Assembly: GCA_963706795.1 (NCBI GenBank)
Contig: OY970170.1
Span: 270,001-302,000 of the forward strand
Direction of reading: 5' to 3'
DNA: 32,000 nucleotides
Source of the DNA: Candidatus Saccharimonadota bacterium
GTDB taxonomy: Bacteria > Patescibacteriota > Gracilibacteria > BD1-5 > UBA2023
In this document: positions 1-32,000 of the stretch, in pieces
Position numbering within the stretch: position 1 is the stretch's first letter
Layout of the letters: every line of letters starts with the position of its first letter
The notes under the pieces: generated by a model
Databases searched by the model: none
Told to the model about the DNA's origin: nothing
Seen by the model: only the letters and a program-made list of their open reading frames with translations
Position numbers and translations under genes: made by a program

Positions 1-33
1 AAAAAATCACTCAGTTAACTGAGTGATTTTTTT
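1..33 (-). terminator. Rho-independent terminator downstream of the HxlR gene (looks bidirectional)
   Basis: A6 run, stem tcactcag (7-14) / ctgagtga (19-26) with loop ttaa, then a T7 run. Confidence 0.7.
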
Positions 34-89
34 GTTCTACTGCAGGTTCTAAGAAATAGAAAATAAACCCGATAAATCATGGAAAATAG

Positions 90-440
90 CTAATTACTTG
101 AGTCTTTATTTTCTAGATTCTCTAAGCCAAAAGAAGCTAATGCTTCCATAATTGGTAATGTATTTATACCAATCTTGGTCAGGCTATATTCTACTTTTGG
201 AGGCACTTCTGGATAGGATTTTTTTGAAACGAAGCCATATTTTACTAAAGCATTGAGTTCTTGGATAAGCATTTTTTCACTGATACCAGGGATAGCTCTT
301 TTAAGTTCACCAAAGCGTATAACTCTCTCATTTATTTGAAACAATATCAGGAGTGTCCACTTTCATCAAAGGAGTCTTAGCGTTCTTCGTATCGGACATC
401 CTTCGTCTGAAGGTTTTATGATTTTTAAAAAAACTTCCAT
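90..440 (-). CDS. HxlR-family winged-helix transcriptional regulator (117 aa, table 25)
   Basis: Track ORF 90..344 continues upstream through tandem in-frame TGA TGA (363-368) to an ATG at 440. The product MEVFLKIIKPSDEGCPIRRTLRLLGGKWTLLILFQINERVIRFGELKRAIPGISEKMLIQEL... fits the HxlR signature CP..TL..iGGKW..lIl..L....RF.EL.r.iPgIS.kmL. Stop is TAA. Confidence 0.9.
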
Positions 441-465
441 AATATTTCTTTTTACCCGTATAAAA

Positions 466-518
466 CTTACCTAAGAGTGAGGTACATACTTTTAGGTAGG
501 TACTTGTATAAAGGTAAG
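466..518. promoter_or_regulatory. Candidate operator/promoter repeats in the HxlR / SnoaL-like divergent intergenic region
   Basis: cttacctaa (466-474) is inverted against ttaggtag (492-499), an 8/9 match. There is a further aaggtaag (511-518) and a duplicated ggtac core. No consensus is known to me, so this is pattern only. Confidence 0.2.
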
Positions 519-644
519 AAAACTATAGCATAAAGCAACTTTATAATTTAATAAAAATTACATTCCAAAATCTAGGTGTCTTATACACCTACGAATAACA
601 CTTATATCCACTAGAACGTAACTATTTTTAATCTAAGAACCAAT

Positions 645-1031
645 ATGAAAGCAATAGAAGTAGTAGAAGCATATTCAATAGCCCTTTGAAAAGGAGATAT
701 TCCTGCAGCATTCTCATATTTCAGTCATGATGCAAAATGGCATCAACCCTGAAATAATCAGTTTTCTGGAACAAAAGTAGGACTTGAGGCCATCGGAAAA
801 ATGCTTGACGACATGATGAGAGTAACACAAGGTTCACTCGTTATTCACTCGATAGGAGCTATGATGGTAAATGATAATTTTGTTTCTTGTCCTGTTCGTT
901 TTAGTGCTAAAAATGGCACTAAAACGATTGATATGAACGGAAGTGACTTGTATGAAGTTACGGAAGGAAAAATTGTTCAAGTATGGCTCTTTTCTGAAGA
1001 TCAAGACGCTGAAGATGAGTTTTGGAAATAA
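645..1031 (+). CDS. SnoaL-like / NTF2-fold protein (128 aa, table 25)
   Basis: An ATG at 645 lies in frame with track ORF 801..1031 across TGA codons at 687-689 and 750-752. The product MKAIEVVEAYSIALGKGDIPAAFSYFSHDAKWHQPGNNQFSGTKVGLEAIGKM...EDEFWK shows the typical SnoaL_2/NTF2-like pattern (gD.....f..d..Wh.pG...f.G..G). It is divergent from the HxlR regulator, a common pairing. Confidence 0.75.
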
Positions 1032-1077
1032 TCTACCAAAAAGATAAAAATATTTCTCACTCATAGAATCTCCTATT

Positions 1078-1108
1078 AAAAAATCACCCATTAAATGGGT
1101 GATTTTTT
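1078..1108 (+). terminator. Rho-independent terminator
   Basis: aaaaaa tcaccca ttaa(a) tgggtga tttttt directly after the TAA at 1029-1031. Confidence 0.75.
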
Positions 1109-1156
1109 ATTTAAGCAAACCTATGCTACGAAGGACAAATATTCAGAATAAAGAAT

Positions 1157-1185
1157 TTGACAATCCCCTTTATCTGGACATAAAT
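1157..1185 (+). promoter_or_regulatory. Sigma-70-like promoter for CDS 1224..1640
   Basis: TTGACA (1157-1162), a 17-nt spacer, then ATAAAT (1180-1185). An AAGGAG Shine-Dalgarno lies about 8 nt before the ATG at 1224. Confidence 0.45.
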
Positions 1186-1223
1186 CATACGTTGTTTCAA
1201 ATCAATCCAACAAGGAGAACGTA

Positions 1224-1736: not shown

Positions 1737-2060
1737 ATGGTTGAACAATCACCCGCTACTGATCAGATATTCCATGCCCTTGCAGATGCGACGAGGCGGG
1801 ATATTTTGCGTCGGGCGATCGTGAGTCACCATACTATTTCGAGTCTTGCGAATGACTATGAAATGAGCTTCACTGCGGTAGCTAAGCATATAAATGTCCT
1901 TTGCAAAGCTGAACTCATCCGCAAATATAAGGTTGGTCGCGAACAAACGATCGAGGCGAATATCCAAAAGATTCAAGAAGTTTGAGCTATGCTTGACGCC
2001 TACGAATCCCTCTGGAAAGATCGCTTTGAAGCCTTAGATACTTTACTTCAAACCCTTTAG
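1737..2060 (+). CDS. ArsR/SmtB-family HTH transcriptional regulator (107 aa, table 25)
   Basis: MVEQSPATDQIFHALADATRRDILRRAIVSHHTISSLANDYEMSFTAVAKHINVLCKAELIRKYKVGREQ... is a typical ArsR HTH_20 pattern. It reads through the TGA at 1983-1985 to the TAG at 2058-2060 (tail ...IQEVGAMLDAYESLWKDRFEALDTLLQTL). I prefer the ATG at 1737 over the track's TTG at 1701. Confidence 0.85.
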
Positions 2061-2595: not shown

Positions 2596-2750
2596 AAATA
2601 CGTGAATATTTCGTGAATAAGGACTCGTCCAAGCGAAACTGTATTGATAAAGCTCACTCGATATGTAAGATTTCTTCAACGTCAGTATTTCAGAAGATTC
2701 CTTCTGTAATGGGAAAAATTACAGAATACTTAGCAAAATTTAAATCACTT

Positions 2751-4052
2751 ATGTACCACTCTTCTCTTACAAAAATATTCGTCTCCTTTGCTCTCTGATG
2801 TATCTCGCTCGCGATCGGGAATATGAGTCACGCAAGTCAGGATACGTGCGACACGGATTACGGCTATACTCCAGGTGTTGCAGGCTGTTATCGTTTCGTA
2901 GATCGTGGTGATGGTGGTCGTAAGGATATGTATGATCAGCCAACGACGGGTGTGCGTGAATTGGATATCATTCTAGAGAAAGAAACTGATCTCAGCATCA
3001 AGGCATCTCTCAAAGATAAACGCATTCGTAACCAGAGTATCGCTGCCGAAACAACCCTTAACCATCTCGGAAGCCTCCTCCCAGACGGCACTGGGAGTAT
3101 CGTCCATGCAACACTGACAACTACGAAAGATTTTAAGGATGATAAAATTTCGTCGATCCAAAATAAGCGTGCATTCAACTATGATACTGTAAACAAGAAA
3201 CTCATCTCTGTCGATGAATTACTCTCAAAGAACGACAAGCAAAAACTTACAAACGATCTCAAGAAAGACGCACGATGCCCGCTTCTCAGCAAAGATATTT
3301 TTGCGTATTCTTTTGTGAATGCCGATAATGCTGGCAAAATCCAAAGCCTCCTTCTCTATCCGTGTATTAATACCGCGTTTTCTATAAAGATAAACTACCC
3401 TTCGCTCAGACTACTTCCCGATGAGTCAGGTTGCAAGATCATGAAAGGATCAAGGTATTCTTGGTCAAATTATGACTATTCAATTGAGAATCGAGTGAAG
3501 ATAACGGCAGACCTCCTCGTCTGCAATCCTCCTCTACCAACAGGCGTGCAGAAGCTCGATGCAGCCATCAACACTAAAGAGAAGCAGCTCATTCAGAAAT
3601 TCTTGCAACCAGATTCTAATGCATGGGAGTATAGATTTTACCCAAAAATCGTGAATGCAGGGAGAATAACGAGTGTGTTCGTAGATGTAAGCATACCCGG
3701 TGGGCGTGGAAAATACAGCTCCAATGAATACCTCGTATTCAACTACAATAAATCGACTGGGAAATTCCTCACTTTGGAACAAGTTTTTACCAAAAAAGAA
3801 ATCGCTACCGCAGCCAAGAAGATCATCAGTGTTACTGAAGCGAAATCTTATTCTTGGACTGGGGAAGGCAGCTACAATCCCTACGGCACACGCGGAAACT
3901 GTACCCAGCAAGATTACACTAGCCTTTTCAATCTTCATACCAATGATTCAGGGAAGGTAACCGCCATTACTTTCTACAATCAGTGTGCATCGAATATGTT
4001 ACCGATCAAACTCTCCTATCCATCGTTTGAACTTATAGAAAATGATAAATAG
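2751..4052 (+). CDS. Secreted hypothetical protein (433 aa, table 25), no family recognised
   Basis: Track ORFs 2613..2798 and 2823..4052 share one frame and are joined by the TGA at 2796-2798. Starting at the ATG at 2751 gives a signal-peptide-like N-terminus, MYHSSLTKIFVSFALGCISLAIGNMSHASQ. Stop is TAG. The start is uncertain (ATG at 2709 or GTG at 2613 are possible). Confidence 0.6.
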
Positions 4053-5559: not shown

Positions 5560-6063
5560 ATGTCTCACCTCGTACAACTCACAGATCAAGACGATCGCTT
5601 CCTCGGACACAAAATGCGTGACGAATTAGTTCCGACTGATATTTTTAGATGCATTAGCGTACATATCACCGATCTCAGTGGCGAATACGTCCTCCTCCAA
5701 AAACGTAGCATGACAAAACCTACAAGTCCATGATTTTGGACAACAGGCGTAGTCTGAACCCTCGAAGACGGTGATACCTACGAGACGGGAGCACTTCGTG
5801 AAATCGCAGAAGAAATCGGAATAGATGCATGCATACTCACATCACACGGAGTTGCTTATCGCCCAAATCAGGCAGGCGGAGGACTCCAACGAATGCTCTT
5901 TACGACCCAAATACCACTCGACAGCATATTTATACTCCAAGAGAGCGAAGTCTCAGAGGTCCGCTGGATCACCCTCGATGAACTTCGCATCTGGGCGAGT
6001 GAATCACCACATACTCTTGCAGGTGGTGCACTCGATATTTGGAGAACGCTGGGGCTCATTTAG
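5560..6063 (+). CDS. NUDIX hydrolase, isopentenyl-diphosphate-isomerase-like subtype (167 aa, table 25)
   Basis: This gene is absent from the ORF track because two TGAs (5731-5733, 5755-5757) split it. The hand translation from the ATG at 5560 reads ...VLLQKRSMTKPTSPGFWTTGVVGTLEDGDTYETGALREIAEEIGI...SEVSEVRWITLDEL.... It contains the KR...K...PG.W motif and the Nudix box (G..E.GE.....A.RE..EE.Gi). Stop is TAG at 6061-6063. Confidence 0.8.
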
Positions 6064-6068: not shown

Positions 6069-6097
6069 AAAAAAATCAGGTTTACCTGATTTTTTTA
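6069..6097. terminator. Short bidirectional terminator between the NUDIX and FemAB-family genes
   Basis: aaaaaaa tcagg ttta cctga tttttttt. The stem is only 5-7 bp. The FemAB-family stop codon (6082-6084) lies in the loop. Confidence 0.55.
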
Positions 6098-7101
6098 ATC
6101 CAACGAAGGAGCGAGAAAAAGAGATATTTGATCTTTTTTACTACAAAAATACGCTTCCCTGGAAAGACGTGCTCTGCTCCACCAAATTTGTGCTTGAAGT
6201 CAGAAACTCCTGCAAGTCGGTGCCCCTGTACTCAATTTGGAGCAATACCCAAGAAGTCGTACTGAGTACAGCCTGCAGACTTCCCTGCTCGCATCATTTG
6301 CCACTGGAGGAGATACGCAGGCATGAATTTGCGCTTCGCATTATCAGAGGTCGAGGCTCCATAGTAATAAATCGCGGTCTTCCCTTCGATCACGAGAATG
6401 GCTGCTGCGATAACTTCTCCATCTTTTTGAGCAAGGTAGAGACCTTCCTCTGGACCTTTTCGTGAAGCAAGCAATGCTTCATAATATTTACGCGAATTAC
6501 CAGCAAAGCCATCGCGCTCAAGCGTCTCCGAAAGCAATGCCATAAAGGCGTCAATATCGGCCGAATTTCCGTCCGAATGCCTCACACTCACCCCTTGTTT
6601 TTCAGCAAGACGGATATTATATCGCCCCTTCTGGTGCATCTGTGCAAGGATATCATCCTCACTCGCCGTAATATCAACCAGCAGTGTGTGTTTTTCGATA
6701 AAACCCTTGTATTCGCCATAAGCGAAGCACTCAAAAGTGTACTCAGTCACCGGTTCAAGTTGCAAAAAAACCGCATTACACTGACGAGTAAGTACAATCA
6801 TCGCTTCCTCTAATTGAACCTCGTGCGAATATATATTTGGTCCGCCAATACAAAAAAGCCCAAATTGACCAAAACCAATCGAACGCTTTTCGATGAGTGC
6901 ATATGCGAGGAGCTTTTCCTTATCAAAAACACCGACAAAATAGGCATCTGAGAGTGCATGGGCATGTGAGAGCATCTGTGTCCATGCTATCTTTTGCCAG
7001 ACAGGTTCGTAGCCCGACATGCCATTCCAAAACTCCAAAATCGCTTTTTCGATCTCAGAAGAAAATTCATTAAGGCATGTTGTACGAATTTGCATAGGCA
7101 A
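6082..7101 (-). CDS. FemAB-family peptidoglycan interpeptide-bridge aminoacyltransferase (339 aa, table 25)
   Basis: Track ORF 6232..7101 (...HQKGRYNIRLAEKQGVSV...GKTAIYYYGASTSDNAKRKFMPAYLLQWQMMRAGKSAGCTQYDFLGIAPN) reads through the TGA at 6232-6234. It continues as GVQGHRLAGVSDFKHKFGGAEHVFPGKR..., the expected FemAB C-terminus (G...FK..FGG). Stop is TAA at 6082-6084. Confidence 0.85.
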
Positions 7102-7191
7102 AAGGCTATGAAAACAGCTCTAAAATGCAATACATTTGCGTTTCGGGGTATGATTTGTTATATTTTTTTAGAACATATTTCTTTTCATTAT

Positions 7192-7542
7192 ATGAATACG
7201 CCTATCGAAGTAAGTACCAAGAATGTAAATGATGTCATGGTATTTGAGTTCACTGGTGAGCTCGACGAGACGAATGCTGACAAAACATTCACTTCTATTT
7301 ATAACGCAATCGGTGACTTTGCAGGGAAAAAAGTCCTCTTTAATCTTGCTGGGCTCAAGTATCTCAACTCGAAGTCTATCGGATACATCGCTGATATCTT
7401 CTCAAATATCGAAGACGGTAATGGAAAAATGACGATCTCTAACATGACCGAGGAAGTAAAAGATACTCTCGAGCTCGTAGGAATCACGACTATTATCCAG
7501 ATCGCCGACAACGAAGCTGACGGACTCGCCATGATGGCATAA
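7192..7542 (+). CDS. STAS-domain protein (SpoIIAA-like anti-sigma-factor antagonist), 116 aa
   Basis: MNTPIEVSTKNVNDVMVFEFTGELDETNADKTFTSIYNAI...LFNLAGLKYLNSKSIGYIADIF...GKMTISNMTEEVKDTLELVGITTII is the canonical STAS pattern, including the L.yinS.giG phosphorylatable-Ser region. The track's upstream extension to 6994 overlaps the FemAB-family gene and is rejected. Confidence 0.85.
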   Translation: MNTPIEVSTKNVNDVMVFEFTGELDETNADKTFTSIYNAIGDFAGKKVLFNLAGLKYLNSKSIGYIADIFSNIEDGNGKMTISNMTEEVKDTLELVGITTIIQIADNEADGLAMMA

Positions 7543-7631: not shown

Positions 7632-9332
7632 ATGTCAGAAAAAAATACGAACGATATTGCGTCTACGACCGTAGAGCAGGCTTCTACAAAGAATGAAGTT
7701 CATCCTGTCTTCACCGAAAAGCCACAAACTCGTGAGCAGATTGGTCTCAAAGCGGCTAATGATCGCATTCGCATTCTTCAATGAGAAGAGGCAAAAATTA
7801 CGGATATCGAGCGAAAGCGCGAGATCCGTACTCAGATCAATTCGATCCGTCGTGAGAGCAATCGCAACGCACAAAAGGATGCCTATATGAATCCGAGCCT
7901 TTCTCAGGATGAGAAATTTTCGGCACGCGCAAAAGAACTCCTTGGGGATGGAGCGCTCGACACGGTTTCGGCGAAGAATCTTCTCACACTTGAGCGCACA
8001 CGACGAGGATCACTCTCGAAATTTTTTGCTTTTAAAAAGACCGTAGATGCTCAGGGTCTCGACCTCGAGGAGCCTCTCGATATAACAAAAGTAAAAGAAG
8101 GTGACGATATTGTTATCGATTTTTGACGGAATTCTGGTGCAGATATCAAGGTCGGTGCAGGTGATCTTCTGCCAATGAACATTAAAGCCGTCTCTATTAC
8201 GGACAATCATGGTCGTGTTCGAGTAGGTGTTCGATCGATCGCAAGTGGCAAAGTAGGATACTACGATGCCAGCGGATATATGGAAATCCACAATGGATAC
8301 TCCATTCACGTCCTCACCGAAGCAGAAACAAAGGCAGCGGTTGGCGCACTGAGTAGCACAGTAACTCTCAGTACTGACGAAACCAAAGAAAATGAAGCAA
8401 TGGATTCTTTTATGGAACAGGCAGATCGATTCCCTTCTCTTGCTCAGAGACTCACGGGAGCAAATATCGATCAATACAAATCATACCAAGAAAAGGCCAC
8501 AGCACTCGCAAAACAGATCGAATCAGAAACCGGAATCCCGTGGCAAGTAACCTATGGACAAGCTACGCTCGAAACCGGTTACGGACAGCATGCCCCAGGC
8601 AATAACTACTTTGGCATGAAGGGATCTGGTCAGTCACAGACCACTAAAGAGGTTATCAATGGTGTTGAAGTCACCGTAAAGGCAGGATTTAAAACCTATG
8701 CCAGTATGGAAGAATCTTTTGCGGACTATGCACGACTTCTCTCGACAAATGCGCGCTACAAAGGTGCATTCGAATACAAGAATGATCCCAAGGCATTTCT
8801 CCAAACTGTTATTGCTGGAGGATACGCGAGTGATCCAGCCTACGTCTGAAAAGTAGAAGCTATTTGGGGGGATTTTGATCGCATCCACAATGCAACAACT
8901 GAGAGTGTTGCAGGAATTCAGATCAATCCAGATATCAAAGTAAAACCAGATACACTCATTAGCTACGCAGAAGGCTATCTTGGTATGAAATATCAACTCG
9001 GGGCTGATGGCAAAAATGCAATTGACTGTTCACAGCTTGTCGTCGAATCCCTCAAAAAGGCAGGAATGGTAGATACTGGTTTTGACACTACTGCCGCAGG
9101 CTTTCATTCAATTGCAAAACACAAAAATCCACACGAAGTACAGCGATGAGATCTCGTATTTCTGCGTACTGGTAGCAAGATTACCCATGTTGAGATCGCC
9201 ACTGGTCCTGCAATAAATGGAGTCATCCCAATCCTAGATGCAAGCGGACGAAGCAACGCCGGCAAGGTTGCCTATCGCGAGCAACCAATTGACGGCCACG
9301 TCATAGTCGGAACACCACCGTTCTATGCATAA
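7632..9332 (+). CDS. Bifunctional peptidoglycan hydrolase: N-acetylglucosaminidase (FlgJ/Glucosaminidase-type) domain plus C-terminal NlpC/P60 endopeptidase (566 aa, table 25)
   Basis: One frame stays open from the ATG at 7632 to the TAA at 9330-9332, across TGAs at 7782, 8124, 8847 and 9147. The middle region GIPWQVTYGQATLETGYGQHAPGNNYFGMKG...ESFADYARLL is the glucosaminidase motif. The C-terminus YLGMKYQLGADGKNAIDCSQLV...EVQRGDLVFLRTGSKITHVEIA is NlpC/P60 with its catalytic Cys and His. Confidence 0.85.
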
Positions 9333-10678: not shown

Positions 10679-11866
10679 TTAAAATATCCCAAGTTGACCA
10701 CTTGCAGGAGCTTCAACATTATCGAGATATCTCCAGAGTGTTTTGATGTCTTCTTTGAGTTCATATCCAATAATCTCGACATCAGCGGTGAGGAGTTTTT
10801 TGATAAACTCAGCAAATGGAACACGCGAGACATCTACAAAATATCTCCCAACTCCAGGAATATCAAGTGCGCATCCAGTAAGAGTTTCTGAGGTGCTACT
10901 TGTAGCAATTGCTACGCGTCAGGCTTGCAAGATCTGTACAAATATATGATCGAGTTTTTCGGTTTCGTCGACCCGCTCATAGTTGATACCTAGGGACTCG
11001 TAATTCGCGAGTACTTGCTCCTCATCCGGTAAAAGTGAACGAAATTCGAGTTCTCGGAAAAAATCTCGAACCGCAGGATTAACAATTGGACGATCTTTAA
11101 AAGCATGGGCCCCAAGATCAAAATCAAAGGCAACATTTGTATCAATGCTCGCAAGTTGCTTTGATAAAAAGGCGACTTCGCGGTTTTCTTCGAGAACAGC
11201 GCGTGTCTTTTCGGGCATTTTATCGAGGTTTTCGTAGATTGATTCGAGTGAACCAAATTCTGTAATGAGTGACTGTGCCTTTTTAGGACCAAAGCCGTGA
11301 ATTCCAGGAATATTGTCCGAAGTATCACCGGTAATTGCGAGATAATCTACGACGAATTCTGGGCCTACTCCAAATTTTTCACGGGCCTGCTCATCTCGTG
11401 CGATCATTCGCTTCATCGTGTCATAGACAGCAACATTCCCGCCAATAAATTGGTAGAGGTCCTTGTCCCCAGAGAGAATATAGAGATCATTTTCTTTATC
11501 CGTGCGGAGTTTTGTTACGAGTGTTCCGATGAGATCGTCTGCTTCAAATCCCATGAGCTCAAGCACAGGGATATCCATTGCAGCAAGGAGCTTTGTAATA
11601 TATTTTTCTTGGGATTTGAGATCGTCTGGCATGCGATCACGTGTTCCTTTGTACTCAGGATATATCTTCTCTCTAAAGGTCGCACCTTTCGCGTCCATCA
11701 CAAAGAGGAGAATGTCTGGTTTTTCACTCGAATGCAGTCCAAGAAGCGCTTTTGCGATACCAAATACCGCATTTACTGGCTCCCCTGCCTTGGTCGTAAA
11801 AGCAGGTACCGCATAAAACATACGATAGATGAGATTATAGCCGTCAATGAGAAATATTTTACGCAT
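10679..11866 (-). CDS. Pol I-type 5'-3' exonuclease (FEN-like) with a short vestigial 3'-5'-exonuclease-like tail and no polymerase domain (395 aa, table 25)
   Basis: MRKIFLIDGYNLIYRMFYAVP...GEPVNAVFG...EYKGTRD...GFEADDLIGTL...ILSGDKDLYQ...LAITGDTSDNIPGIHGFGPKKA is the canonical 5'-nuclease plus H3TH pattern. It reads through the TGA at 10919-10921 into GRVAIATSSTSETLTGCALDI...IIGYELKEDIKTLWRYL and stops at the TAA at 10679-10681. Confidence 0.85.
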
Positions 11867-15430: not shown

Positions 15431-15494
15431 GTCTTTTTCCGTTTTTTTCTCTGTTTGATGATCTATTGTTGCCTCGCCATTTAATTATTTATAT

Positions 15495-15866
15495 ATGCAA
15501 GAAAACGAAAAAGCGCAGTACCGCCAAGCCTTTAAAGAAGGTGCCCAAAAAGAAGCTCACAAAGAGCTCCAAAATCTCATGAGAACCGTCGTAAAAACCC
15601 ACATCGATGAGCCAGGATGAACACAAAATATTTATAAGCTCTTCTCAGATATCTATGATGATGTCTTTTTGGATATGTATAACAAAAAGATCGACCTCAA
15701 ACGCAAAACACGCCACATGCTCGAGATGCTTTCGCTTCCTCATACACATAGACCATACGAAGAACGCATCAAGCTCTATCACGACATCATCGAAAATCGC
15801 ACTTACTACCAGCGAAAGCCAAAAGCAGAGAATACAGATGAAGAGGTTGAAGCTGCAAATTCGTAG
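15495..15866 (+). CDS. Hypothetical helical protein (123 aa, table 25)
   Basis: The ATG at 15495 is in frame with track ORF 15669..15866 across one TGA (HIDEPGGTQNIYK). Stop is TAG. It is divergent from 13778..15430. Confidence 0.5.
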
Positions 15867-20326: not shown

Positions 20327-20794
20327 ATGGAAGATACAGAATCTCTCCCAAACTGGATACGGCAGAATCCTGAAAGATTTCAGAAAAGACTCAAAGAGGA
20401 AGCAAAACTCCTCTATAAAGATTTTCCAAATCTGGGATTTTATCGAGATGGTCTTGTATTATATATAGAAGGACCGGTTGTCTCTCGAAGTTTTAACGCA
20501 TACAGAATTCGTGTGCGCTATCCCGAAGAGTATCCATACGCCCCAGCAGAAGGCTATGTGTTAGACCAGGATGTCCGTGATTATGCAAGAAACATAAGTG
20601 CTCATACACTTCATCATTACGGCGATACTGGGGATGAATGGGGTATGCAGCTCTGTTTGCAAGATATCAGCGAATGGAAGATCAATGACTCTGGTATTTC
20701 GATCGCGCAGTTTACGATCTTGTGGCTGAATGCTTATGAATTTTTTCGAATTAAGGGTTACTGGCCCCTCAGGGCTGGTGATTCAACATTTTAA
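20327..20794 (+). CDS. Ubiquitin-conjugating-enzyme (UBC/E2)-fold protein, prokaryotic E2-like (155 aa)
   Basis: SD aaagga precedes the start. The sequence aligns by eye along the whole UBC core. The N-terminal helix is RLKEEAKLLYKDFPNLGF. LYIEGPVVS...YRIRVRYPEEYPYAPAEGYVL corresponds to I.GP...pY.gg.f.l.i.fp.dYPf.pP.v.F. HHYGDTGDEWGMQLCLQDISEW corresponds to HPNi...G.ICLdiL...W, with the candidate catalytic Cys at 20654-20656. Confidence 0.75.
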   Translation: MEDTESLPNWIRQNPERFQKRLKEEAKLLYKDFPNLGFYRDGLVLYIEGPVVSRSFNAYRIRVRYPEEYPYAPAEGYVLDQDVRDYARNISAHTLHHYGDTGDEWGMQLCLQDISEWKINDSGISIAQFTILWLNAYEFFRIKGYWPLRAGDSTF

Positions 20795-20812
20795 AACAAC
20801 AAGGAGTAGATC

Positions 20813-21862
20813 ATGAAAGAAGAATACAAAATCCCTGGAATGCCTGATGTCGGAACACCTGGCAATCGCAGAAACATTCAAACAGAAGCACTCGAAAACA
20901 TGTTTCGAGAATTCAATAATGGTGAAGGTATGCTCATCACCCGAGAAGGTATGCCTATAGCCAAAAGCACGCTTCCTGGTAATCCGTCTGATTTTGCAGA
21001 ACTTCGCAATATTCGGACAAGTATGGCGGATGCAGACATTGCATCTAATCCGTATCATGCACCCAATCCACGCCGTGATACACTGATGCCACCTCTGCGT
21101 GGCAAATGTATGACGATCGTTGGTTTGGGTGGAGGAGCTAATATTCCTATTGAGCTCCTCAAATGTGGCGTAGATCATTTTCATTTGATTGACCATGATA
21201 TTCTGGAGCCGGCCAATGCCATTAGGCATCCCTGCTCCAAGCGATATTTTGGACTTCCAAAAGTCGAAGCCGTCAAACTCCATATGCTCGATCTCACTTC
21301 GCAAGAAGTCGAGATCACGGCGCATAACTACAATGTGTTTGATGACCGCAAAAAAACGATCGATATCATCGAGCAATCCGATGTACTCATTGTTGCGACT
21401 GACACCGAAGCTTCTCGGCATTTTCTTAATGAAATCGCAGTTAAAGCAGGTGTGCCAGCTGTATTTGTGGGTATGTTCGAAAATGGTTCTGGTGGCGAAA
21501 TCTTTGCCGCCTTGCCGGATGCGCCATGCTATTGCTGCCTGGCAGAACATCTGGGTCGCGAAAAATTCCTCACAGAATACCGCGAAACCACCAAAAAAGC
21601 GGACTGCAGTTCGGCCCGTGACACCTCAGCAATGCCGGCTCTCGGTATTGATCAGGGGCTTCTTGCGCTCATTGCAGCTCGTAAGTCCGTGGATATCCTT
21701 CTCTCTGGAGTGCAACACTCTCTCCCTCCACTCGGAGGTAATTGGATCATTTTTTCGATTTTCGGTATTCCAAAAATACTCGAGACATCGCTCTCATCGA
21801 TCCAATCCGACCTCACGCGACATCCTAAATGTTTCGCGTGTGGCGAACCAACGCTCACATAG
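20813..21862 (+). CDS. ThiF/MoeB-family E1-like adenylyltransferase (349 aa)
   Basis: A strong SD (aaggag) precedes the start. CMTIVGLGGGANIPIELLKCGVDHFHLIDHDILEPANAIRH...GLPKVEAVKLHMLDL...VEITAH...SDVLIVATDTEASRHFLNEIAVKAGVPAVFVG...GGEIF...PCYCCL aligns with E. coli MoeB: the nucleotide loop GLGG.G, the D.D....sNl.R motif, the ..TDn Asp and the first CxxC. A second CxxC (CFAC, 21830-21841) completes the zinc tetrad. An N-terminal extension of about 95 aa is uncharacterised. Confidence 0.85.
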   Translation: MKEEYKIPGMPDVGTPGNRRNIQTEALENMFREFNNGEGMLITREGMPIAKSTLPGNPSDFAELRNIRTSMADADIASNPYHAPNPRRDTLMPPLRGKCMTIVGLGGGANIPIELLKCGVDHFHLIDHDILEPANAIRHPCSKRYFGLPKVEAVKLHMLDLTSQEVEITAHNYNVFDDRKKTIDIIEQSDVLIVATDTEASRHFLNEIAVKAGVPAVFVGMFENGSGGEIFAALPDAPCYCCLAEHLGREKFLTEYRETTKKADCSSARDTSAMPALGIDQGLLALIAARKSVDILLSGVQHSLPPLGGNWIIFSIFGIPKILETSLSSIQSDLTRHPKCFACGEPTLT

Positions 21863-21880: not shown

Positions 21881-21912
21881 AAAATATCCCCTTCAACCGA
21901 AGGGGATATTTT
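21881..21912. terminator. Bidirectional rho-independent terminator between the E1-like and UPF0489 genes
   Basis: aaaa tatcccctt caaccg aaggggata tttt. Confidence 0.8.
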
Positions 21913-22621
21913 AATATTCAAAAACTCTCTTGAGCATATCAATTGCACGCGCTTGATCGATAAAAAACGGGCTCGTCGCGATCGTGATACATGAAACCTG
22001 TGAGGCAAAATGGAGAATGACTTCTTTTTTGAATGCAAAATCAATATCGTTGAGCTCAGGAGCAAAAAAATCAAGATCGAGATTAAGGATCGAATTTTTT
22101 GAAATCATCGAATGGCGCTCACGCGTAAGATCGCCTTCTCATTCGATACGAATCATCCGCCCAATGAGGCCTTCAGCCATGGCAGGCTTTATATAGTTGC
22201 CAACATTGCACTCAAAATTGGTAAATTCAAAGACCCTCCCCATATCGAGTGAGTCAGGTTTTTGAAGTGTGAAGGTATTCTCCCAAAGATCCGAATGCTC
22301 ATCGATGTGCACAAGGGTCGCCCCATCTTGGAGAATGCCATTTGATCGTGCTTCGTACCAAAAATAGAGCGCATGGTTGTGGTTATCAAAGATCGTAACT
22401 GGAATACCATTCCATGAGGTTGAAACAAAATTTTTGAGTCCATACGCCTCAATGCAACGACCATCATCCTCAGCTACAAACACAAGGTTTTTGCTCTCGC
22501 GCACGTCATCAAAACTTCATTTAATAAGTCCTGGTACCACCAATGCACCTTCCCATCCAAGTGGTGCAAGAGCACGATTCCCTTTTAAATCCGTGAGGAG
22601 GAACGAGTCACTATAGTGCAT
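21911..22621 (-). CDS. UPF0489-family protein (236 aa, table 25)
   Basis: Track ORFs 22139..22504 and 21911..22108 are in frame and joined by the TGA at 22139-22141. The frame extends upstream through the TGA at 22517-22519 to the ATG at 22621. The motifs FDNHNHALYFWY, LVHIDEHSDLW, NVGNYIKPAMAEGLI and LNLDLDFF match my recollection of UPF0489 (C5orf22-like: DH.e.L..., HfDsHpDl, LDIDLDfF). Confidence 0.65.
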
Positions 22622-23192
22622 GGCCTGACTCAAAAAGCGCATGAAGCTCTACAAGAGTAGACTCGATGTCCTCATTTACGATGCGAATATCATAAAAATG
22701 TCGCTCTTCCATCTCGACGAGTGCATTTGCATAGCGGATTTCGAGATCTTCAGGAGAATTCACACCACGTCCAATAAGCCTTGATTTGAGGACATCAAGC
22801 GATGGTGGCTCAAGAAAAATACTCGTCACTTCATATCCTGCATCCTCGAGCACTGGCTTGAGATGAACCATGCCTTGAGGATCGATGATATAGAGTGGTT
22901 TCTTACCAAGCTCTACAATGCGCTCAAGCTCCTCAAAAGTCGAGCCGTAATAGTTTCCATGCACAATTGCATATTCGATGAGTTTTTTGTCATGAATCGC
23001 CTCCTTAAAATTATCAGCGGACCAAAAATGGTAGTGTACGCCATCCACTTCTCATGGCCTCACTGCACGGGAAGTGGTAGTGATTACTTTTTCGATGCGA
23101 GTATCGGGATGTTCATATTTGTAAGTCTCCCAAACGGTGGTTTTACCAACGGCAGAAGGTCCTGAAAGAATGAAAACGTGTGGCTGATTCAT
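22611..23192 (-). CDS. gmk: Guanylate kinase (193 aa, table 25)
   Basis: The ATG at 23192 gives MNQPHVFILSGPSAVGKTTV...ITTTSRAVRPGEVDGVHYHFWS...YAIVHGNYYGS.... The P-loop and the TTR..RpGE.dG.dY.F motif are both present, with the RPGE Gly encoded by the TGA at 23052-23054. Its end overlaps the UPF0489 start by 11 nt. Confidence 0.92.
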
Positions 23193-23201: not shown

Positions 23202-24308
23202 TTATTGCGCACTGATGATGAGGGCTCGGTTTTCAACCTTGCTCCACTTACGCATCCATTCTGAAACTGGATATACGTGTCGTCCAGTATATACATCCCA
23301 TACGATAATATGTGATGGTTTTTCGGGAGTTCCATAGTATCCCATGAGGATAAATGCATGCTCGCCATTCCAAGCCTTTACTTCGATTTTTTCAAGATTA
23401 GGTCCGATGTATGACCAGTTGAGAGTACGATCCTTATCTAAGCTCGCACAAACATTTTTGGCATTTACACCGAGCGTGTTGGCTTCGCGGGTAGTTACTT
23501 CTGAAGCAAGTCCATCCTCAGCATTTGGATCTGTACACCAGTCACCCCAGAGCTGCACTCTCTTGCCAGATTTTATAGCAGTGAGTACTTCTGTAAGACG
23601 CTTTGAGACATTTGCAGTTTCTTGCGGAAGTGCGGTAGTGAGATTATTTTTCTTGTAAAGTTCAGTGATCGGAGTTTCGTATACTCCATATCCAGTCATC
23701 TTTCGCTGACTTCCATAAATATCACCCACGAATCCTGCATCTGGATTTCCCCAAATACCGAACTGGTCTACACCGAGACCATAGTACTGCTTCAAGATTG
23801 ATGCTTCGAGCATATCTTCTGTGACCGGAGCCTGAGTCATCGTAGTGATCACCGCAGAAGTTGCAGAAATCTCACAGCTTAGTGGACGCTGTTGAATACT
23901 GAGTCCACTAAATGTCTTGGTTGTATCAAATACTTCTCCGGTTGGCAGAGTATTTTTGTGACTCTGCACCTCCATAGTAATCTGTCTATTAAGTTTGAGT
24001 TTCGATTTATTCAATGCACTAAGCATCGGAGTAGTAAGTTTCGTATTTGCGACTACGCGATCGATTCTTCGTGTTGTTTCGAGCATGAAATCCAGTCGAT
24101 CAATCGTTGGATTTTGAGCGAGGTACCCGTAGTACTTACCGAAATCTATATTCGATCGAGGGAAAAGGATCGCAAGACTTCCGCTTCATTCTGCTGGATA
24201 GCATGACATCGTCGAGCCTGTTCCACTACATGTCGCAGGGCTCGCTGCAAATGCTGTCGAAATACTTCATACAAGGAGAACTGCTGCTACCAAACAAATC
24301 CGCTTCAT
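23202..24308 (-). CDS. Secreted C39-like (Peptidase_C39_2/YvpB-like) cysteine peptidase (368 aa, table 25)
   Basis: Track ORF 23202..24086 extends upstream through two TGAs to the ATG at 24308. This gives the signal peptide MKRICLVAAVLLVGSISTAFAAS. SIQQRPLSCEISATSAVITTM has a Q...C nucleophile context, and WNGEHAFILMGYYG provides the His, consistent with the C39-like papain fold. The subfamily is not certain. Confidence 0.6.
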
Positions 24309-24399: not shown

Positions 24400-27300
24400 T
24401 TATTCTACAACAACTTCCTTCCCTGCGCTTCGTCCGAAGACTTCTGAATTTGAGAATTCAAATACACGACTTGGGCGGACGGAATACGTACCTGCATGGG
24501 TCATACGAATGGTATATCCAAATCCATAATCCCCTCCATTCATCGAGTCTGCAGTAGCAAAATATCGATCATCACGATATTCTTCGTGGCTAAAGAGTTG
24601 CGTGCTGTAACTGTCTATTTCATGTCCAAGATTTGAAGCACGCGGACCTGCATTATCTGGAGAAGTCGGCACATTGATCGCGCTCGTATTCGCAACATCT
24701 TTACTCTCAGTTGCGAGCACTGTATTCACCAGCTCGGAACCTGCAGGAATAAATCATTCGAAGGCTGGTTGGCTGCGATCCTCGCTCGTGATGAGACGAT
24801 TATATGCGTAGACGAGATCACCGATCTTAAATTTAGTCTGTGTCGTGAGATAGGTCACGATCTCTTTCGGATATTTAAGTGCGCTGTATTCGATCTCACC
24901 ATTTGCATATTTTGCCCATTCTTCATTTTTGAGGGCTTCTATTTTTTTGAAATCCTTGAGGAGATAATACGTTGTATCAACATAGAATCCTTCATCTCGA
25001 GCAGCAATATTCTTAGCTGGAATCGTGTATGCAAGTGAGAGATCGTAATAGAGGGTTCCCTTTCCTTCCTTCTCAAACGTAAATGTCGTGTTTGTAGGAA
25101 GCGAAGAAGCCAGCATATTTTGTGAGAAGACTCCAAAACGGTCACTTCCTGTAATTTTTTTCTCAACGAGGAGATTGCCATCGGATTTTACACGGGCGAT
25201 CATATCGACATTTTTGAGTTCGCCAGTGCTTGTGAGATACGTCCCCAGCGCTCGAATAATTGCGGCGGTTTCTTCGGTAGTTCCGTAGCTTCCATCAGAA
25301 TTTTTAGTATTGAGGAGGAAGCGATTCATATTATCAAGAACCATATCAACATCCGTAAACGAAGATCGTCCGAGCATAGTTACTGCCTCGATAAATGACG
25401 CGGTATTTTCGATACGAGAATATTCTCCATCACCCCCAACGAATGCTCCGCGAGGATTGATCACTACATCATTTTTAAGAATCGTATCGATGCGTGATTT
25501 TGCCTCCACCTGCATAGACTTTTTGTCTGTCTCTGGGATATCTCGTTGTGCTACAAGCACTGCAATCGTACGAAGCTCTGCAAAAATATCAGAAGGCGTA
25601 AACTTAGAATTATCGATGAGCTTGTACATCTTGAGAACTTCCGTGTCTGATGGAGTAATGGCAAGAATGGATTCTATAGCTGCAAGGCGATAAGATTCTG
25701 GATATTTACAATCGTATGTCGGCTTTGGAATGCAACCCTCAAATTTACCATCATAGAATCGAGATTTGAGATATTTAATAGCGTTGGACTCGAGCTTTTG
25801 ATCGATCGCAAATCCGAGTGATTTGAGGTCAGCGAGTGTGCGAACCACATACGACGTGAGTTTAAAATCCGCGGTCGTGTTATTGGTTGTATTCCAATAA
25901 ACAAATCCACCAGAATTTTTCTGAACATCACCGATCGTTGCAATATAATCGAGCATCGTTTGCTTGATCGAAACATTCGTATATCCCGTTTGTGCATCGA
26001 CATATCTTGGTATCGTGTGTGTGACAAGATCAAATGGCTCACCAATGGCAGTATAGAGTTTTTTGAGCTCGATATTTGGCACAAGCATACTCGTCTTTTG
26101 CCATGTTCCGCCGTATGGATATTCATTAAGCTGCTTCATTCCCTGTGCGAGCGAACCAAGGAGCGACGTGCTGTAATTGATCTGTACTCGTGCATCTTTT
26201 GAGAGACCACCGAGCACAAGTCGCTCGTCGACAGATTTATCTGTAGTCTTACCAATCGTAGCCGTACGCTCAGGAGTAGACGGCATGAGAATAGGAAGAA
26301 TATTCTCCACCTGATCTTCATTGCCCTTGGCATCGACCGCCTTAAAGGTAATCTTTGAAGCAAATGCTGGTGCTTCGTCGAGATTAGAATGTGGTACAAG
26401 TTTAAATCGAGCAACGGCAGATTCACCATTTTTGATGAAGAGTTTTGTACCACCTGTATCAATGTCCGCATTATCAGCACTCGCAGTGATCGTGATATTT
26501 GCATCTTCACCCGTCTTATTAAAGATCACTGGTGCGAGCATAACACTATCGCCAGACACTAGGAATCGTGGAAGATTCTCAGATACGAGCACCGCCTTGG
26601 TAGTCATGATGCTGGTCTTACCCACGCCGATACGATTATCGACTGGAGTTGATACTACCGACTCAATGACCCAAGTTGTGAGATTATCCGGAAGCTTATC
26701 CGCCGAGATTTTTGCCTCACCGTTGGCGTCGGTACTAAAATCAGATTTCCAAAATGCAGTATCCTTAAATACTCCTCGCTTCTTTTTGGCATCACCTCAT
26801 TTTGTACCATCTCCGGCACCTCCCTTCTCACCATTTCAGGTATTTTTTACCTCGAGTTTTTCGATGAGATTAACCAGTGAGATATGAGTAGTAACGCCCA
26901 GATAGCGTTTCATGTCATAAAAGAAGGCAAACGGATTTTTTTGTGGATTTCCCATGAGTGCGAGCACACTCTCATCAACGATCGAGAGTGAACCATTCGC
27001 ATCTTTTACCGGATTGCCATTTGCATCCTTCACCCTAACAGTCACATCAACCGCATCACCTGGCAGATATCGAGTCTTGGATGGGATAACTTCTACAGAG
27101 AGTTTTTTGTCATCCGATATCACCTTGAGTACCGCGAGTGCACGCTTGTAGACTGGTAGTTCCATCTTGTCGTCCTGACCGATGAGGTAGACCTTTACGT
27201 AGACATTGGGGATATAGCTCATCTGGATCGGCACCTCAATGCGCTCTGTGTAGCTCGTAATATCCTTGGTATAGCTATCGAGGATGGCTTCATCTTTTTC

Positions 27301-30300
27301 GATCGAGACAAAATATTTGCCCGTTTTGACTGGAGATTTGAGTGTGAGTACTGCAGTCTCACCTGGCTTCAGAATATTTTTTTCGGCCACAAGATCTGTG
27401 ACAGAATTATTCCCATTATTCCAGAGCATATAGCGGTCAGACTGGACGTAGATAGTACGAGAAGAGACGAATGTCTTACCATTTGCTCCCGTGTAATTGG
27501 CACGAATTTCGTATTCACCATCAGAGTCCGTTCGGAAAGTAACTTGGAATTCCCCTGAGTCATTAGATTTTACATCGATATCTTTTTCTTTCTTCTCTTC
27601 TACAGCGTAATCATCATAGAATATTCCATCAACTCATTGTTTTTTGGTCGCTTTCCATTCGCGGTGAATAACTTGGACTATAGCTTTTGCGCCCTTTTTA
27701 CCCACAGCATCATATCCGAGGATGACACCATCAACACGGATATCACTGTCTTTTGGATACCAATATCCTCATCTCAGTCCAACGTAACCATCAGTAGTAT
27801 GGAGAACTTCGGTATGAGATTTATTGACAGTTTTTTGCGTGTCAGGATCTTTGACCTCTACATTGTACGTGTAGAGTTTTTCACCATTTGGATTGTCGCC
27901 ACCATTTTGGTCCTTATCCGCTTTTGGATAGTCGAATGTAAATGAGCCATTTCCATTTTCATCGATCTTGCCATCACCGGTAGTGATCGTCATATCCGAA
28001 TATGCACACACTCCCCAATAGAGACAATCAAAATAATCATATCCACTTCCAAATTGGTAGTCAGAGTATTTCTTCGCATCAAAGAAGTAGTTCTGAGCGA
28101 GCACTGAATAATGAAACGAAGTGTTCACCATCTTGCCACCAAAATAGTATTCACTCGAGATATTCATCTTGGTAGAGTCACCGAGAAAATGATCCTTTGA
28201 TTCAGAGGCTACAGCCACCTTGAAGGTCGGTTTTTTGTAGGCTTCGATATAAAAACTCGCGTCATTATAGATATAGGCTCCTGCGTCATTAGTTGGCCCA
28301 TACATAAATTGATTACCGCCCTTGATATAGAGCTCGAACGAAATACGTCCAAAACTTGATTCGGTTGGGATCGTGAATTCTCCATGAAAATTCGAATTGG
28401 CATCGAGCGTTACAGGGAATTCTGTAAAGAGGGAACCATCTTCTTTGATGAGCCTGACTTTACCGGCTGTATTTTTAGATTTTGTGTACCCAGTTGGCTC
28501 AAATGTACGTAGAAGTCACTTGAATTGTATCTTGTCACCTGGTCGATAAATCGGACGATCTGTGTAGATATATGCAAAGTCTTTGACCATCGAAGATGCC
28601 TGACCTGAGATATATCCAAAATCGTAATTCCCAGCTTCATCCTCATTTGCAAGCACTGCATATTTGCCATCTTTTTCAGCAAGAATAAGTCGATGTGCGC
28701 CCGAGATTTCGTAGAGATTTTTAGATTTAATATATGTCGCTTTAAAGTCGGTATTCTCAACAAGATTGCCAGCATTGACTGTATACGCATGAAATGTAGC
28801 CCCTTCGATTACCTGTTTCCCATCAATCGATGTGAGGAAGAGATATTGCTTGTTTGCGCCAGCCTCGAGAGCCATCGCAAGACCAGAGCGCACATAGATA
28901 TTGAGGAATTCTTTGCCATCTAATCGACTCTTGCCTGATCCAAGATTATAACCACCAGTTGTACTCGCTCGTACAAACACAAATGGTGAATTAAATGGAC
29001 GACCGAGGACATCCTTCTCGATATCAAATCGATTATTCGTGATTGACCACGCCTTATTTGCAACCTTGAGTGTCTTTTTGATAGAAGTTCCTGCTGTGCA
29101 TTTTGGCTCGAATCATCCATTGTAGAAGTTTGTAAGATAATCCGCATATCCCGCAATATCCGTCTCGCAGATTTCAATATTAACTTCATTCAGATTGATT
29201 GTCTGCAAATTTGCGATGATCGGAAGACTGCTTGGGATCACATTAATATTCTTCGAAACCGGCGAATAGACATATTTATCAGCGTCCTTGATATCACCCG
29301 CTACAATACCCTTCTTTTCAAATGGCTGCGCAATAGGATTGCCTACCTGATCCCCAAGAGTTGGCTTGATACGAAGATCGTACGAACTATGTGGCTGAAA
29401 TCTTGTCCCGAGAACATAGGCGTATTTTCCTGGAATACTCTTACAAAGATCGACCGTTTGATAGATATTAGTAACTTCGTTATAGATAGATGTATCGTCC
29501 TCACGAATAGATCTGATTGGTGATTTTGGAGTCGTCTCAAATTGCGTCTCAAGACCATATGTACCCTGATATTTCGAAGTCAACGGACTTGTAAAATAGA
29601 TACAGCTCTCCGTATTTGAAACATATGTAAAATCGCTCGCTATAAACTTTGGTGCGGTCTTCATCTTTTCGACAATATCGGCCTTGATGTGTTCGTTAGA
29701 ACTGCGATCAATCGTAAGTGCATATTCGGTATCATCTGCGAGTTTTTGACCAATCTCACACTTGAGTCGGTATTTATCATCAACGAGTTTTTTAACTTTT
29801 TTGCCGCCTTCAAATGCTTCATTCTCATTTTGCGTATATGAGAGCTTGCATTCACTGCGTCCATCCTTGGATACAAGATATGGCTTAATCTTTGCAATAT
29901 CTATTTCTTCGCCAAATGAGAGCACAAAGAAGAGTTGGTTGCTCGGAATAATACGAGGCTTGCCTGGATCAGGTAGATCACTCATTTCTTTTGTATCAAT
30001 GAGTGCGCCTGTCTCACTATAAATCGATCGAAATACCTGTGTATTTTGCAAGAAATCAGTCGATCTAAAGTCATAACTCTTTGAGCCTGTCATCGCGAGA
30101 TTCCCACCAACTGGTGTAATAGAACCCGAAAACGTCACCTTGTAGTCACTCGAATACGCGAGTCCTGGACTCGAGTTCTTTACAATAAGAAATCTGCGTC
30201 CCGCATCAGCTGCACCGTTTTCTGTTACCGCAGTCACTCCAATGTCCTTTCCAAATTCTGTAACATGCAAGAGAGGAATAAGATCTGCCGTCTTCACTGG

Positions 30301-31284
30301 CGTATTAAAACTGAGTGGAATCCCCTTCAATGGAGAAAAATTCTGTGAAGGAGTTAACACTTCGAGTCTTGGAGTCTCAAAAGTAGCAGTTTTCGTCTCG
30401 GAAAGTGGATAAAGTAAACCTTCTCTGGAAGCTACCTTAATATCAAATTTTGTCGCGTATGGAAGTGGATTTGTTGGCACAAATTCAAGAATCGATCCAT
30501 TCGTCCAATTACATTTTCATTCCACTGCCGGAGTAATCTCGAGCGGACATGGCAGCGCATCTTTATTCGCCAAACTCGCAAGCGGAATCATTGGAATATT
30601 AAAAAGCACAACGATATTTTTACTCACATTTGCAAGTCGCCCATCAGGCATGATGCGCATAGCTTTTGCTCCAGCGATTGCCTCTATCTCGTAGGTGATA
30701 TCCTGTCCGAGCTTTGTTCCGTATTTGGATTTAATATCGCCTGAGAGAGTAATCGTGTAGTGATCTCCGATTTTAAGCTTGTTCGAGAGTTTGTAAGAGA
30801 TGATATTCCCATCTTTGAGAGAAGCTTCTCCTGCTACATATGGTGCAAATCGGACACTTTCTTTGGTGATCGAACCCGCATCGAGTTCTTTCGAAAATGT
30901 AATATCGATCGATGGTACGTCGTATGGAATCTTTTTGTATTCAAAGCTCCAATTACCAGCTACCACCGAAGGCGCAGCCAGGAAATATTGAGCACCAAAT
31001 ATTCCGACAGCCACAACAACAATCGCGGCAAATGCTCCAGAATATATCTTGGTATGTGCCATAAAGTTAGCACGAATCCGAGCAAAGAAGCCTTCGCCCT
31101 TTTTGATCTGAATGCCATCTTTAAGAAGCTCTTCTTTGAGCTTCATCGCAAATTGCTGGTCGAATTTTGTATCGGGTTTTTCGGCAAGCAGGGTTTTGAT
31201 GGCTTTCATAATTTCTTTTTTATGATCGGCGAGAGACGGGTCTACAGCGACGAGCTCTTCAAAGATTTTTGCAGCTGATTTCAT
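24400..31284 (-). CDS. Giant membrane-anchored alpha-2-macroglobulin-family protein (2,294 aa, table 25) with an anti-sigma-like cytoplasmic N-terminus and no thioester motif
   Basis: Seven track ORFs (30517..31284, 29113..30480, 28516..28980, 27769..28305, 26836..27429, 24754..26625, 24400..24729) share one frame (the 6885-nt span is divisible by 3). All gaps were parsed codon by codon and contain only TGAs, 8 in total (24754, 26797, 26836, 27634, 27769, 28516, 29113, 30517). Hallmarks are the MG2-like DRPIYRPGDKIQFKG, the A2M-domain RGVFKDTAFWKSDFSTDANGEAKISADKLPDNLTTWVIESV, the thioester-site context LNEYPYGGTWQKTS, and the C-terminal PAFEGFIPAGSELVN. The N-terminus is about 75 helical residues followed by the TM helix IYSGAFAAIVVVAVGIFGAQYFL. 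Confidence 0.85.
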
Positions 31285-31286
31285 AT

Positions 31287-31841
31287 CTAAAAAAGGAAAA
31301 AGAAGAGGAACATAGCAATATTCGCCGCAATTTTTGCGAGCGTTCGAGAGATGATTTTTTTGACGTTTGAAAGGGATTCACCACTGATTTCTGCGATTTC
31401 TGCATATTTGAGATCGTCCCAAACTGCCATGAGCACAATGTCCTTATCTCGCACCGGAAGGGTTTCGAGATAAGCAAGGACTTTACCAAGACGCTCTTTT
31501 GCATCTATCGCACTTGCGTGGTCAGTCTGCTCTCCGAGAGACTCAGCGTGATCATCGAGTTCTTCATGCTGCTTGAGAGTTCGAGAGCGATCGACAATCG
31601 TGTTATACGCAATCCGAAAAAGCCACGACGCGAGTTCGGATTCGGACGAGCCACCAAAGCTTTCAAATGATTTCAGCGCTTTATAAAACGTATCCGAGGC
31701 AATTTCTTCGGAAGCGTCTCGATCGAATGTTCGATAGAACGCAAAATCGTAAATACGCTTGATAAAGGAATCATAGATTATCCCAAAAGATTCTCTATCT
31801 CCTGCGCGAAAAGATTCGATGGCAGACTCTAATTTTTGCAT
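31287..31841 (-). CDS. ECF-type sigma-70 family RNA polymerase sigma factor (184 aa)
   Basis: MQKLESAIESFRAGDRESFGIIYDSFIKRIYDFAFYRT...ASEEIASDTFYKALKSF...ASWLFRIAYNTIVDRSR is region 2. LETLPVRDKDIVLMAVWDDLKYAEIAEISGESLSNVKKIISRTLAKI is the region 4 HTH. I prefer the ATG at 31841 over the track start at 31889. The TAG stop is 2 nt before the A2M-family ATG. Confidence 0.85.
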   Translation of the reverse strand: MQKLESAIESFRAGDRESFGIIYDSFIKRIYDFAFYRTFDRDASEEIASDTFYKALKSFESFGGSSESELASWLFRIAYNTIVDRSRTLKQHEELDDHAESLGEQTDHASAIDAKERLGKVLAYLETLPVRDKDIVLMAVWDDLKYAEIAEISGESLSNVKKIISRTLAKIAANIAMFLFFFLF

Positions 31842-32000
31842 AACCAGAAAACAAAGTGATGAATACCAAAGCCTATAACGAACACCCAAAAATAAGGTGA
31901 CAATTTAAAGTTAGTTTCATCTCTTTACTTGTTTTTGCAAAGATAAAATCTCACAGATAGCTTCCGATTGATTCTCCTATATAAATCACTATGCTATGTG

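Follow-up and report, generated by a model that had tools for sequence, protein, structure and literature searches.

UGA as a predicted glycine codon in a 32-kb stretch of probable Gracilibacteria DNA

The code in which UGA stands for glycine, NCBI translation table 25, has been known in Gracilibacteria and Absconditabacteria since 2013, and the biology of the DNA described here is not new. We analysed a 32-kb stretch (the window, ~42% GC), half of whose genes contain in-frame TGA codons. The code was reportedly set out by Campbell et al. 2013 and Rinke et al. 2013 (Candidate Division SR1/Gracilibacteria). A UCA tRNA of this code would be expected to carry the glycine identity elements G1:C72, C2:G71, G3:C70 and U73. 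In both lineages UGA is assigned to glycine, a tRNA-Gly(UCA) is present and release factor 2 (RF2) is absent (PMC8629427). BD1-5 genomes are without prfB, the RF2 gene, and a closed BD1-5 genome of 1.34 Mb exists (PMC6851277). A gTranslate preprint is likewise a source for decoding by tRNA-Gly(UCA) and for the absence of prfB in the lineage, while for proteomic confirmation of the glycine translation PMC6851277 cites Hanke et al. 2014 (PMC4032931).

The window shares with these systems UGA as a sense codon at glycine positions, TAA and TAG as stops, and relatives among the Gracilibacteria, and we see no qualitative difference from the table 25 code. The difference is one of degree, with some relatives using UGA for 65–90% of their glycines versus ~6% in the window. 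We conclude with high confidence that the window is chromosomal DNA of Gracilibacteria (BD1-5-type, Patescibacteria/candidate phyla radiation) that follows translation table 25, with UAA and UAG as the only stops.

UGA is a sense codon inside conserved genes

We compared stop-to-stop frames, with a minimum length of 100 codons, for four sets of stop codons, including TAA and TAG controls. With the standard stops (TAA, TAG and TGA), these frames totalled 14,119 codons, the longest having 680. Reading TGA as sense raised the total to 27,766 codons and the longest frame to 2347 codons, against totals of 19,540 and 19,545 in the TAA-as-sense and TAG-as-sense controls, in both of which the longest frame remained at 680. 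Coding density, taken from a greedy set of non-overlapping open reading frames (ORFs) under each assumed code, was 0.685 with table 11 and rose to 0.907 when TGA was read as sense, with longest ORFs of 624 and 2341 codons, respectively; the TAA and TAG controls reached 0.763 and 0.764 and kept the longest ORF of 624 codons. A preliminary description of this DNA, which had proposed table 25, named such a re-calling of genes as a check on it, and the outcome agrees with that proposal.

A gene set was curated with TAA and TAG as sole stops, guided by Pfam matches and by gene calls on matching Logan contigs (run ERR12037365), in which the TGA-free proteins of the window recur. The set comprises 30 genes and covers 92% of the window, with 16 genes ending in TAA and 14 in TAG. 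It contains 40 in-frame TGAs, carried by 15 of the 30 genes (Table 1), or 4.1 per 1000 codons; as glycine codons, they would make up 40 of 658 (~6%). These counts match those of the preliminary description, and all seven of the TGA coordinates quoted there hold a TGA on the coding strand, including the tandem at 363-368 on the minus strand. Whether about four of the 40 are in frame hinges on which start codon is chosen; these lie in putative signal peptides or N-terminal regions and are marked as start-dependent in the table.

Single Pfam domains span TGAs in the HxlR, SnoaL, NUDIX, FemAB, glucosaminidase plus NlpC/P60, guanylate kinase (Gmk), UPF0489 and alpha-2-macroglobulin (A2M) genes. Orthologues do so as well. 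The 5'-3' exonuclease has an orthologue in relative L011 with 49% identity over aa 2-395, an alignment that includes the TGA and the 79-aa tail behind it. In the closest relative, L014, the hypothetical 860-aa gene has an orthologue with 42% identity over aa 15-860, and that of the UPF0489 gene is 75% identical. Homology extends past every TGA for which a homologue exists, and no TGA in the 30 genes lies close enough to a C-terminus to be a candidate for the true stop. Because Pfam domains and full-length orthologues cross the TGAs, UGA is a sense codon here, read through inside conserved genes. The further claim that TAA and TAG never interrupt a gene and that all genes end in one of the two is partly circular once TGA is set as sense; its non-trivial form, which concerns the lack of candidate TGA stops near C-termini and the homology beyond the TGAs, holds. 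The interruptions are TGA only, and frameshifts are absent.

The same evidence bears on the notion that the TGAs are true stops, arising from pseudogenes, from assembly or sequencing errors, or recoded as selenocysteine. The genes do appear fragmented under table 11, as that explanation expects. However, TGA is the sole interrupter, and the frames are free of frameshifts. Across a 10,714-bp overlap, an independent Logan assembly (contig L001) matches the window exactly, and the positions are kept as G or TGA in 25 related genomes. For selenocysteine, 40 sites in 32 kb would have to be accepted, with partner residues that are Gly and never Cys; an Rfam scan of the window and L001 gave zero matches, with no selenocysteine insertion sequence (SECIS) or tRNA-Sec seen. 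We regard true stops as having a vanishingly small chance of being correct.

A dual meaning is also conceivable, with UGA mostly glycine but still a stop in some genes or contexts, through leaky or partial reassignment and a retained RF2. Not one of the 30 genes needs a TGA stop, however, and both the distance of the TGAs from the C-termini and the persistence of homology beyond them speak against such a role. Moreover, L001 continues for 9.8 kb beyond the right end of the window, and the eight genes in this extension carry 45 further read-through TGAs. What recommends a dual code is the rarity of in-frame UGA in the window and the existence of some Gracilibacteria-labelled metagenome-assembled genomes (MAGs) that keep both a UGA stop and RF2 (PMC8629427). 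On balance, we judge it very improbable, and take UGA to be a sense codon throughout the window.

Alignment columns point to glycine as the meaning of UGA

To assign an amino acid, we used the 2294-aa A2M protein. It was scanned against GTDB species-representative genomes, which yielded 25 loci; the orthologous frames were translated with TGA masked as X, and the 26 proteins (the window and 25 others) were aligned. Over 895 occurrences in this alignment, the partner profile of TGA (G 0.58, S 0.07, A 0.06) is that of the GGN glycine codons (G 0.59, S 0.07, A 0.05), and differs from that of the tryptophan codon TGG (W 0.66, Y 0.10, F 0.07); W does not figure among the six residues most often aligned to TGA. 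A Codetta-style log-likelihood calculation on the A2M TGA columns gave G −1457, with S next best at −3685. A codon-reassignment check of the kind recommended in the preliminary description, applied to these A2M columns, favours G by more than 2000 log units. Since the profile of TGA columns equals that of GGN glycine, the alignment shows UGA at glycine positions and its predicted meaning is glycine, not tryptophan, in accord with the table 25 reading.

The eight TGAs of the window A2M gene illustrate this. The columns at aa 256, 923, 1217 and 1496 hold solely G or TGA in the 25 orthologues. The column at aa 2177 holds G or S and the other three are variable; W occurs in none of the eight. Five of the eight TGAs lie in Gly-majority columns (binomial P = 6e-5 against an overall background of 6.6%), as do 103 of 159 GGN codons (65%), compared with 2.2% of the non-Gly residues and none of the 12 Trp residues. 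Across the window, G or TGA is the majority partner for 18 of the 31 TGAs that have a homologue column (P ~5e-14, at the A2M background rate).

Comparison with PDB chains gives a similar picture. Most chains have Gly at the second HxlR position, in Gmk, at both Nudix positions, in NlpC/P60 and at SnoaL aa 36, and Trp is never found (Table 1). The preliminary description had placed the TGAs on family-invariant glycines. For HxlR, Gmk, Nudix and NlpC/P60 this stands in the form that Gly is usual, whereas for FemAB it fails, the homologues having P, F or S. Many of the TGAs in the 9.8-kb extension likewise fall on textbook glycines, among them the Rossmann motif 'ILITxGAGFIG', transglycosylase 'QxGSTIT', transpeptidase 'xSTLKPF', helix-hairpin-helix 'LPxVGPYTA' and Nudix 'xES'.

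The users of translation table 4, in which UGA is read as tryptophan, include Mycoplasmatales, Hodgkinia, Nasuia, Zinderia and Stammera, and several are endosymbionts of insects or ciliates. These systems have captured the same stop with the same effect on ORF calling and the same presumed prerequisite of RF2 loss, and table 4 accounts for the ORF structure and the gain in coding density exactly as table 25 does. There is even a public translation of Gmk, from its Logan copy, with W at the TGA. The two codes part over the amino acid and the phylum. In no case does a window TGA align to a Trp column, the TGA profile is unlike that of TGG, and the Trp residues of the window A2M avoid the Gly-majority columns that its TGAs favour. 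The relatives, moreover, are Gracilibacteria, no lineage known for table 4. A tryptophan reading is therefore, in our estimation, extremely improbable, and glycine is the meaning that we adopt below.

Lineage, decoding machinery and codon usage in relatives

For all 25 loci with an A2M orthologue, the source is a MAG whose title names Candidatus Gracilibacteria, Candidatus Peribacteria or the Patescibacteria group. In-frame TGAs occur in the orthologue in every one of them, and the best locus is 65% identical. The Gracilibacteria origin proposed in the preliminary description is thereby supported. Going by the literature on this lineage, a dedicated UCA-anticodon tRNA-Gly would decode UGA as glycine, and prfB, with it RF2, would have been lost, so that UAA and UAG would both be read by RF1. 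The restriction to TAA and TAG stops is consistent with RF2 loss but no proof of it, and the 32-kb window and the 9.8-kb flank contain no release-factor genes.

Several observations count against the table 25 interpretation. Some 40% of the window TGAs are in variable, non-Gly columns, for example those at FemAB aa 288, glucosaminidase aa 406 and A2M aa 724, 1172 and 1483; this share matches that of ordinary GGN glycines, but no such site alone proves Gly. ARAGORN found zero tRNA genes in the window, in its 9.8-kb flank and in the Logan loci L001 and L002, and in the 25 related loci it found ordinary tRNAs only, with a UCA-anticodon tRNA in none. Lastly, the placement in the lineage is based on a single protein family and on record titles.

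For Absconditabacteria, Codetta predicted CGA/CGG to Trp in addition to UGA to Gly (Shulgina and Eddy 2021, PMC8629427). The window has UGA as glycine and the wider clade in common with this extended code, but lacks the reassignment of Arg codons. CGA occurs 114 times in the window, 23 of them within A2M, where its partner residues include R at 0.30 and K at 0.19; CGG occurs 19 times, in typical Arg contexts. By these alignments, CGA and CGG are shown to be still arginine codons in the window, and the Trp variant is ruled out for it, CGA being common and in R/K columns and CGG being in Arg contexts. Together with the names of the relatives, this points to a probable position on the BD1-5/Gracilibacteria side rather than with SR1.

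The A2M orthologues differ widely in their use of UGA. Its share of glycine codons runs from ~1% to 90%. TGA is the main glycine codon (65–90%) in the A2M frames of L016, L018, L020, L021, L023, L026 and L027, with 104 TGA versus 11 GGN in one example; the other 18 loci and the window have a share of 1–21%. Five of the high-TGA loci are at 21–27% GC, while L018 and L026 are at 35–37% GC and near 80% UGA. Within the genome of the window, a low-GC glycan gene cluster just outside the right edge has a UGA density several times that of the window. We offer as a tentative and rather doubtful suggestion that, if these patterns hold genome-wide, the clade records successive stages in which a captured stop displaced GGN, the organism of the window representing an early low-usage stage. 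AT pressure would then not be the sole driver of the displacement, changes in the tRNA-Gly set being one example of a further cause.

CGA and CGG codons are nearly absent from the A2M orthologues of the high-TGA relatives. The lone CGG in L016 occupies an otherwise 100% Trp column, which fits the predicted Absconditabacteria change of CGG to Trp, on a single codon.

Affected genes, annotation and neighbouring loci

Table 1. Genes of the window with in-frame TGAs, and other features discussed in the text. Residues in the last column are those aligned to the TGA codons.
Feature	Position (strand)	In-frame TGA	Domain match	Aligned residues
HxlR-family regulator	90..440 (−)	366-368, 363-365 (tandem; aa 25-26, 'LLxxKW')	Pfam HxlR, 9.5e-26, aa 24-112	PDB: AG, GG, TS, GG, GG
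SnoaL/NTF2-like gene	645..1031 (+)	687-689 (aa 15), 750-752	Pfam SnoaL_2, 1.5e-10, aa 7-112	PDB: aa 15 Q, N, T, G, G (variable); aa 36 G, G, G, D, D
Small ArsR-like regulator	1737..2060 (+)	1983-1985	HTH_5 (sole Pfam match, weak)	
Hypothetical secreted protein	2709..4052 (+)	2796-2798 (start-dependent)		
Nudix hydrolase	5560..6063 (+)	5731-5733, 5755-5757	Pfam NUDIX, 1.7e-13, aa 33-143	PDB: aa 58 G, G, N; aa 66 (first Gly of Nudix box) G, G, G
FemAB-family peptidyltransferase	6082..7095 (−)	6232-6234 (aa 288)	Pfam FemAB stretch, aa 223-330	PDB: P, F or S (variable)
Glucosaminidase + NlpC/P60 cell-wall hydrolase	7632..9332 (+)	7782-7784, 8124-8126, 8847-8849 (aa 406), 9147-9149	Both Pfam domains (glucosaminidase, NlpC/P60) in one frame	PDB: aa 406 E, R, R, D, D (variable); NlpC/P60 'xDLVF' G in 5/5 chains
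5'-3' exonuclease	10679..11866 (−)	10919-10921	Pfam 5_3_exonuc_N, 5_3_exonuc	L011 orthologue: K
Hypothetical 550-aa gene	13778..15430 (−)	14894-14896, 14213-14215		
Small hypothetical gene	15495..15866 (+)	15618-15620 (start-dependent)		
Hypothetical 860-aa gene	15960..18542 (+)	Ten; first bases 16152, 16233, 16290, 16482, 16521, 16761, 16998, 17316, 17526, 17574		L014 orthologue, in order: TGA, G, S, G, gap, G, A, I, Q, K
UPF0489-domain gene	21911..22642 (−)	22517-22519, 22139-22141	Pfam UPF0489	L014 orthologue: G and TGA
Guanylate kinase (Gmk)	22611..23192 (−)	23052-23054 ('RPxE')	Pfam Guanylate_kin, 6e-35, aa 6-188	PDB: S, G, G, G, G; Gracilibacteria orthologues: G in 4/4
Peptidase_C39_2-like gene	23202..24308 (−)	24267-24269, 24186-24188 (start-dependent; putative signal peptide/N-terminus)	Pfam, aa 141-256	
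Bacterial alpha-2-macroglobulin (A2M), 2294 aa	24400..31284 (−)	Eight; first bases 30517, 29113, 28516, 27769, 27634, 26836, 26797, 24754	Pfam Big_5, MG2, A2M_BRD, A2M, bMG10, ordered along a single frame	See text
STAS gene	7108..7542 (+)			
410-aa hypothetical secreted protein	12393..13625 (−)			
Small E2-like protein	20327..20794 (+)		PADLOC E2 models, best 1.5e-8	
ThiF/E1-like protein	20813..21862 (+)		PADLOC E1-E2 models, 8.7e-27	
A2M and ECF-type sigma factor genes	24400..31841 (−)			
Glycosyltransferase/Nudix/epimerase cluster	L001:1-3377			
Class A penicillin-binding protein	L001:6299-8332		Transgly + Transpeptidase	

The value of recognising the code is practical: under standard gene calling, half of the window genes come out fragmented or mistranslated. 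Table 11 splits 15 of the 30 into ~55 pieces, and A2M into nine. Such fragmentation, which the preliminary description had anticipated, is already present in public data, with Gmk recorded in a public protein collection as fragments of 46 aa and 145 aa from NCBI/ENA-derived calls (table 11). The same collection contains a 193-aa Gmk with Trp at the TGA, from a Logan-derived call (table 4), and the Gly version is absent from it. Different contigs of one organism were evidently called with different codes. A heuristic for UGA recoding that defaults to table 4, placing Trp at conserved glycines, is a second error route. Reading the domains, operons, E2/E1 pair and A2M locus of the window requires table 25.

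The start-dependent TGAs belong to three genes. In the hypothetical secreted protein, the TGA is internal only if the ATG at 2709 is the start, which is uncertain; the long form gains a signal-peptide-like N-terminus, and table 11 calls begin at 2823. The small hypothetical gene, for which the Pfam scan gave no match, lies in an open frame at 15387-15866 with an uncertain start, and starting at 15429 would add two upstream TGAs. For the Peptidase_C39_2-like gene there is an alternative 257-aa call, so both its TGAs are uncertain. In the ArsR-like regulator the frame stays open for 24 codons beyond the TGA. The hypothetical 550-aa gene has 550 codons without TAA or TAG, and a homologue search for it gave none.

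The 15 TGA-free genes include AHSA1-like, TMEM175, flavodoxin-like, STAS, dUTPase, E2-like, ThiF/E1 and ECF sigma factor genes. Three ORFs were rejected during curation. Those at 20561-21823 (−) and 633-1091 (−), from the greedy set, are spurious antisense frames, Pfam identifying ThiF and SnoaL on the plus strand as the real genes, and the ORF at 7299-7532 (−) was dropped for the STAS gene, following the gene calls on the Logan contig.

The small E2-like protein, which has no Pfam match, adjoins the ThiF/E1-like protein, and the pair is kept in L014. It resembles, as a candidate assignment from the model matches, a split Cap2-type component of a cyclic oligonucleotide-based anti-phage signalling system (CBASS) or a bacterial ubiquitin-like conjugation module; no cyclase was seen near the pair. 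In the 410-aa hypothetical secreted protein, the middle is a long low-complexity region rich in Asn, Tyr and Ser; the protein is without a Pfam match and has a weak relative in L011, with 27% identity.

The A2M gene lies directly downstream of the ECF-type sigma factor gene, and the class A penicillin-binding protein (PBP) is encoded ~2 kb upstream of this locus. Linkage of A2M to PBP1C is known in other bacteria, and the A2M and class A PBP found here recall it. Adjoining the right edge of the window, the glycosyltransferase/Nudix/epimerase cluster is at 35–39% GC and has 25 TGAs in ~1100 codons, versus 4 per 1000 in the window; the cluster may represent an island that is distinct in composition or was acquired by transfer.

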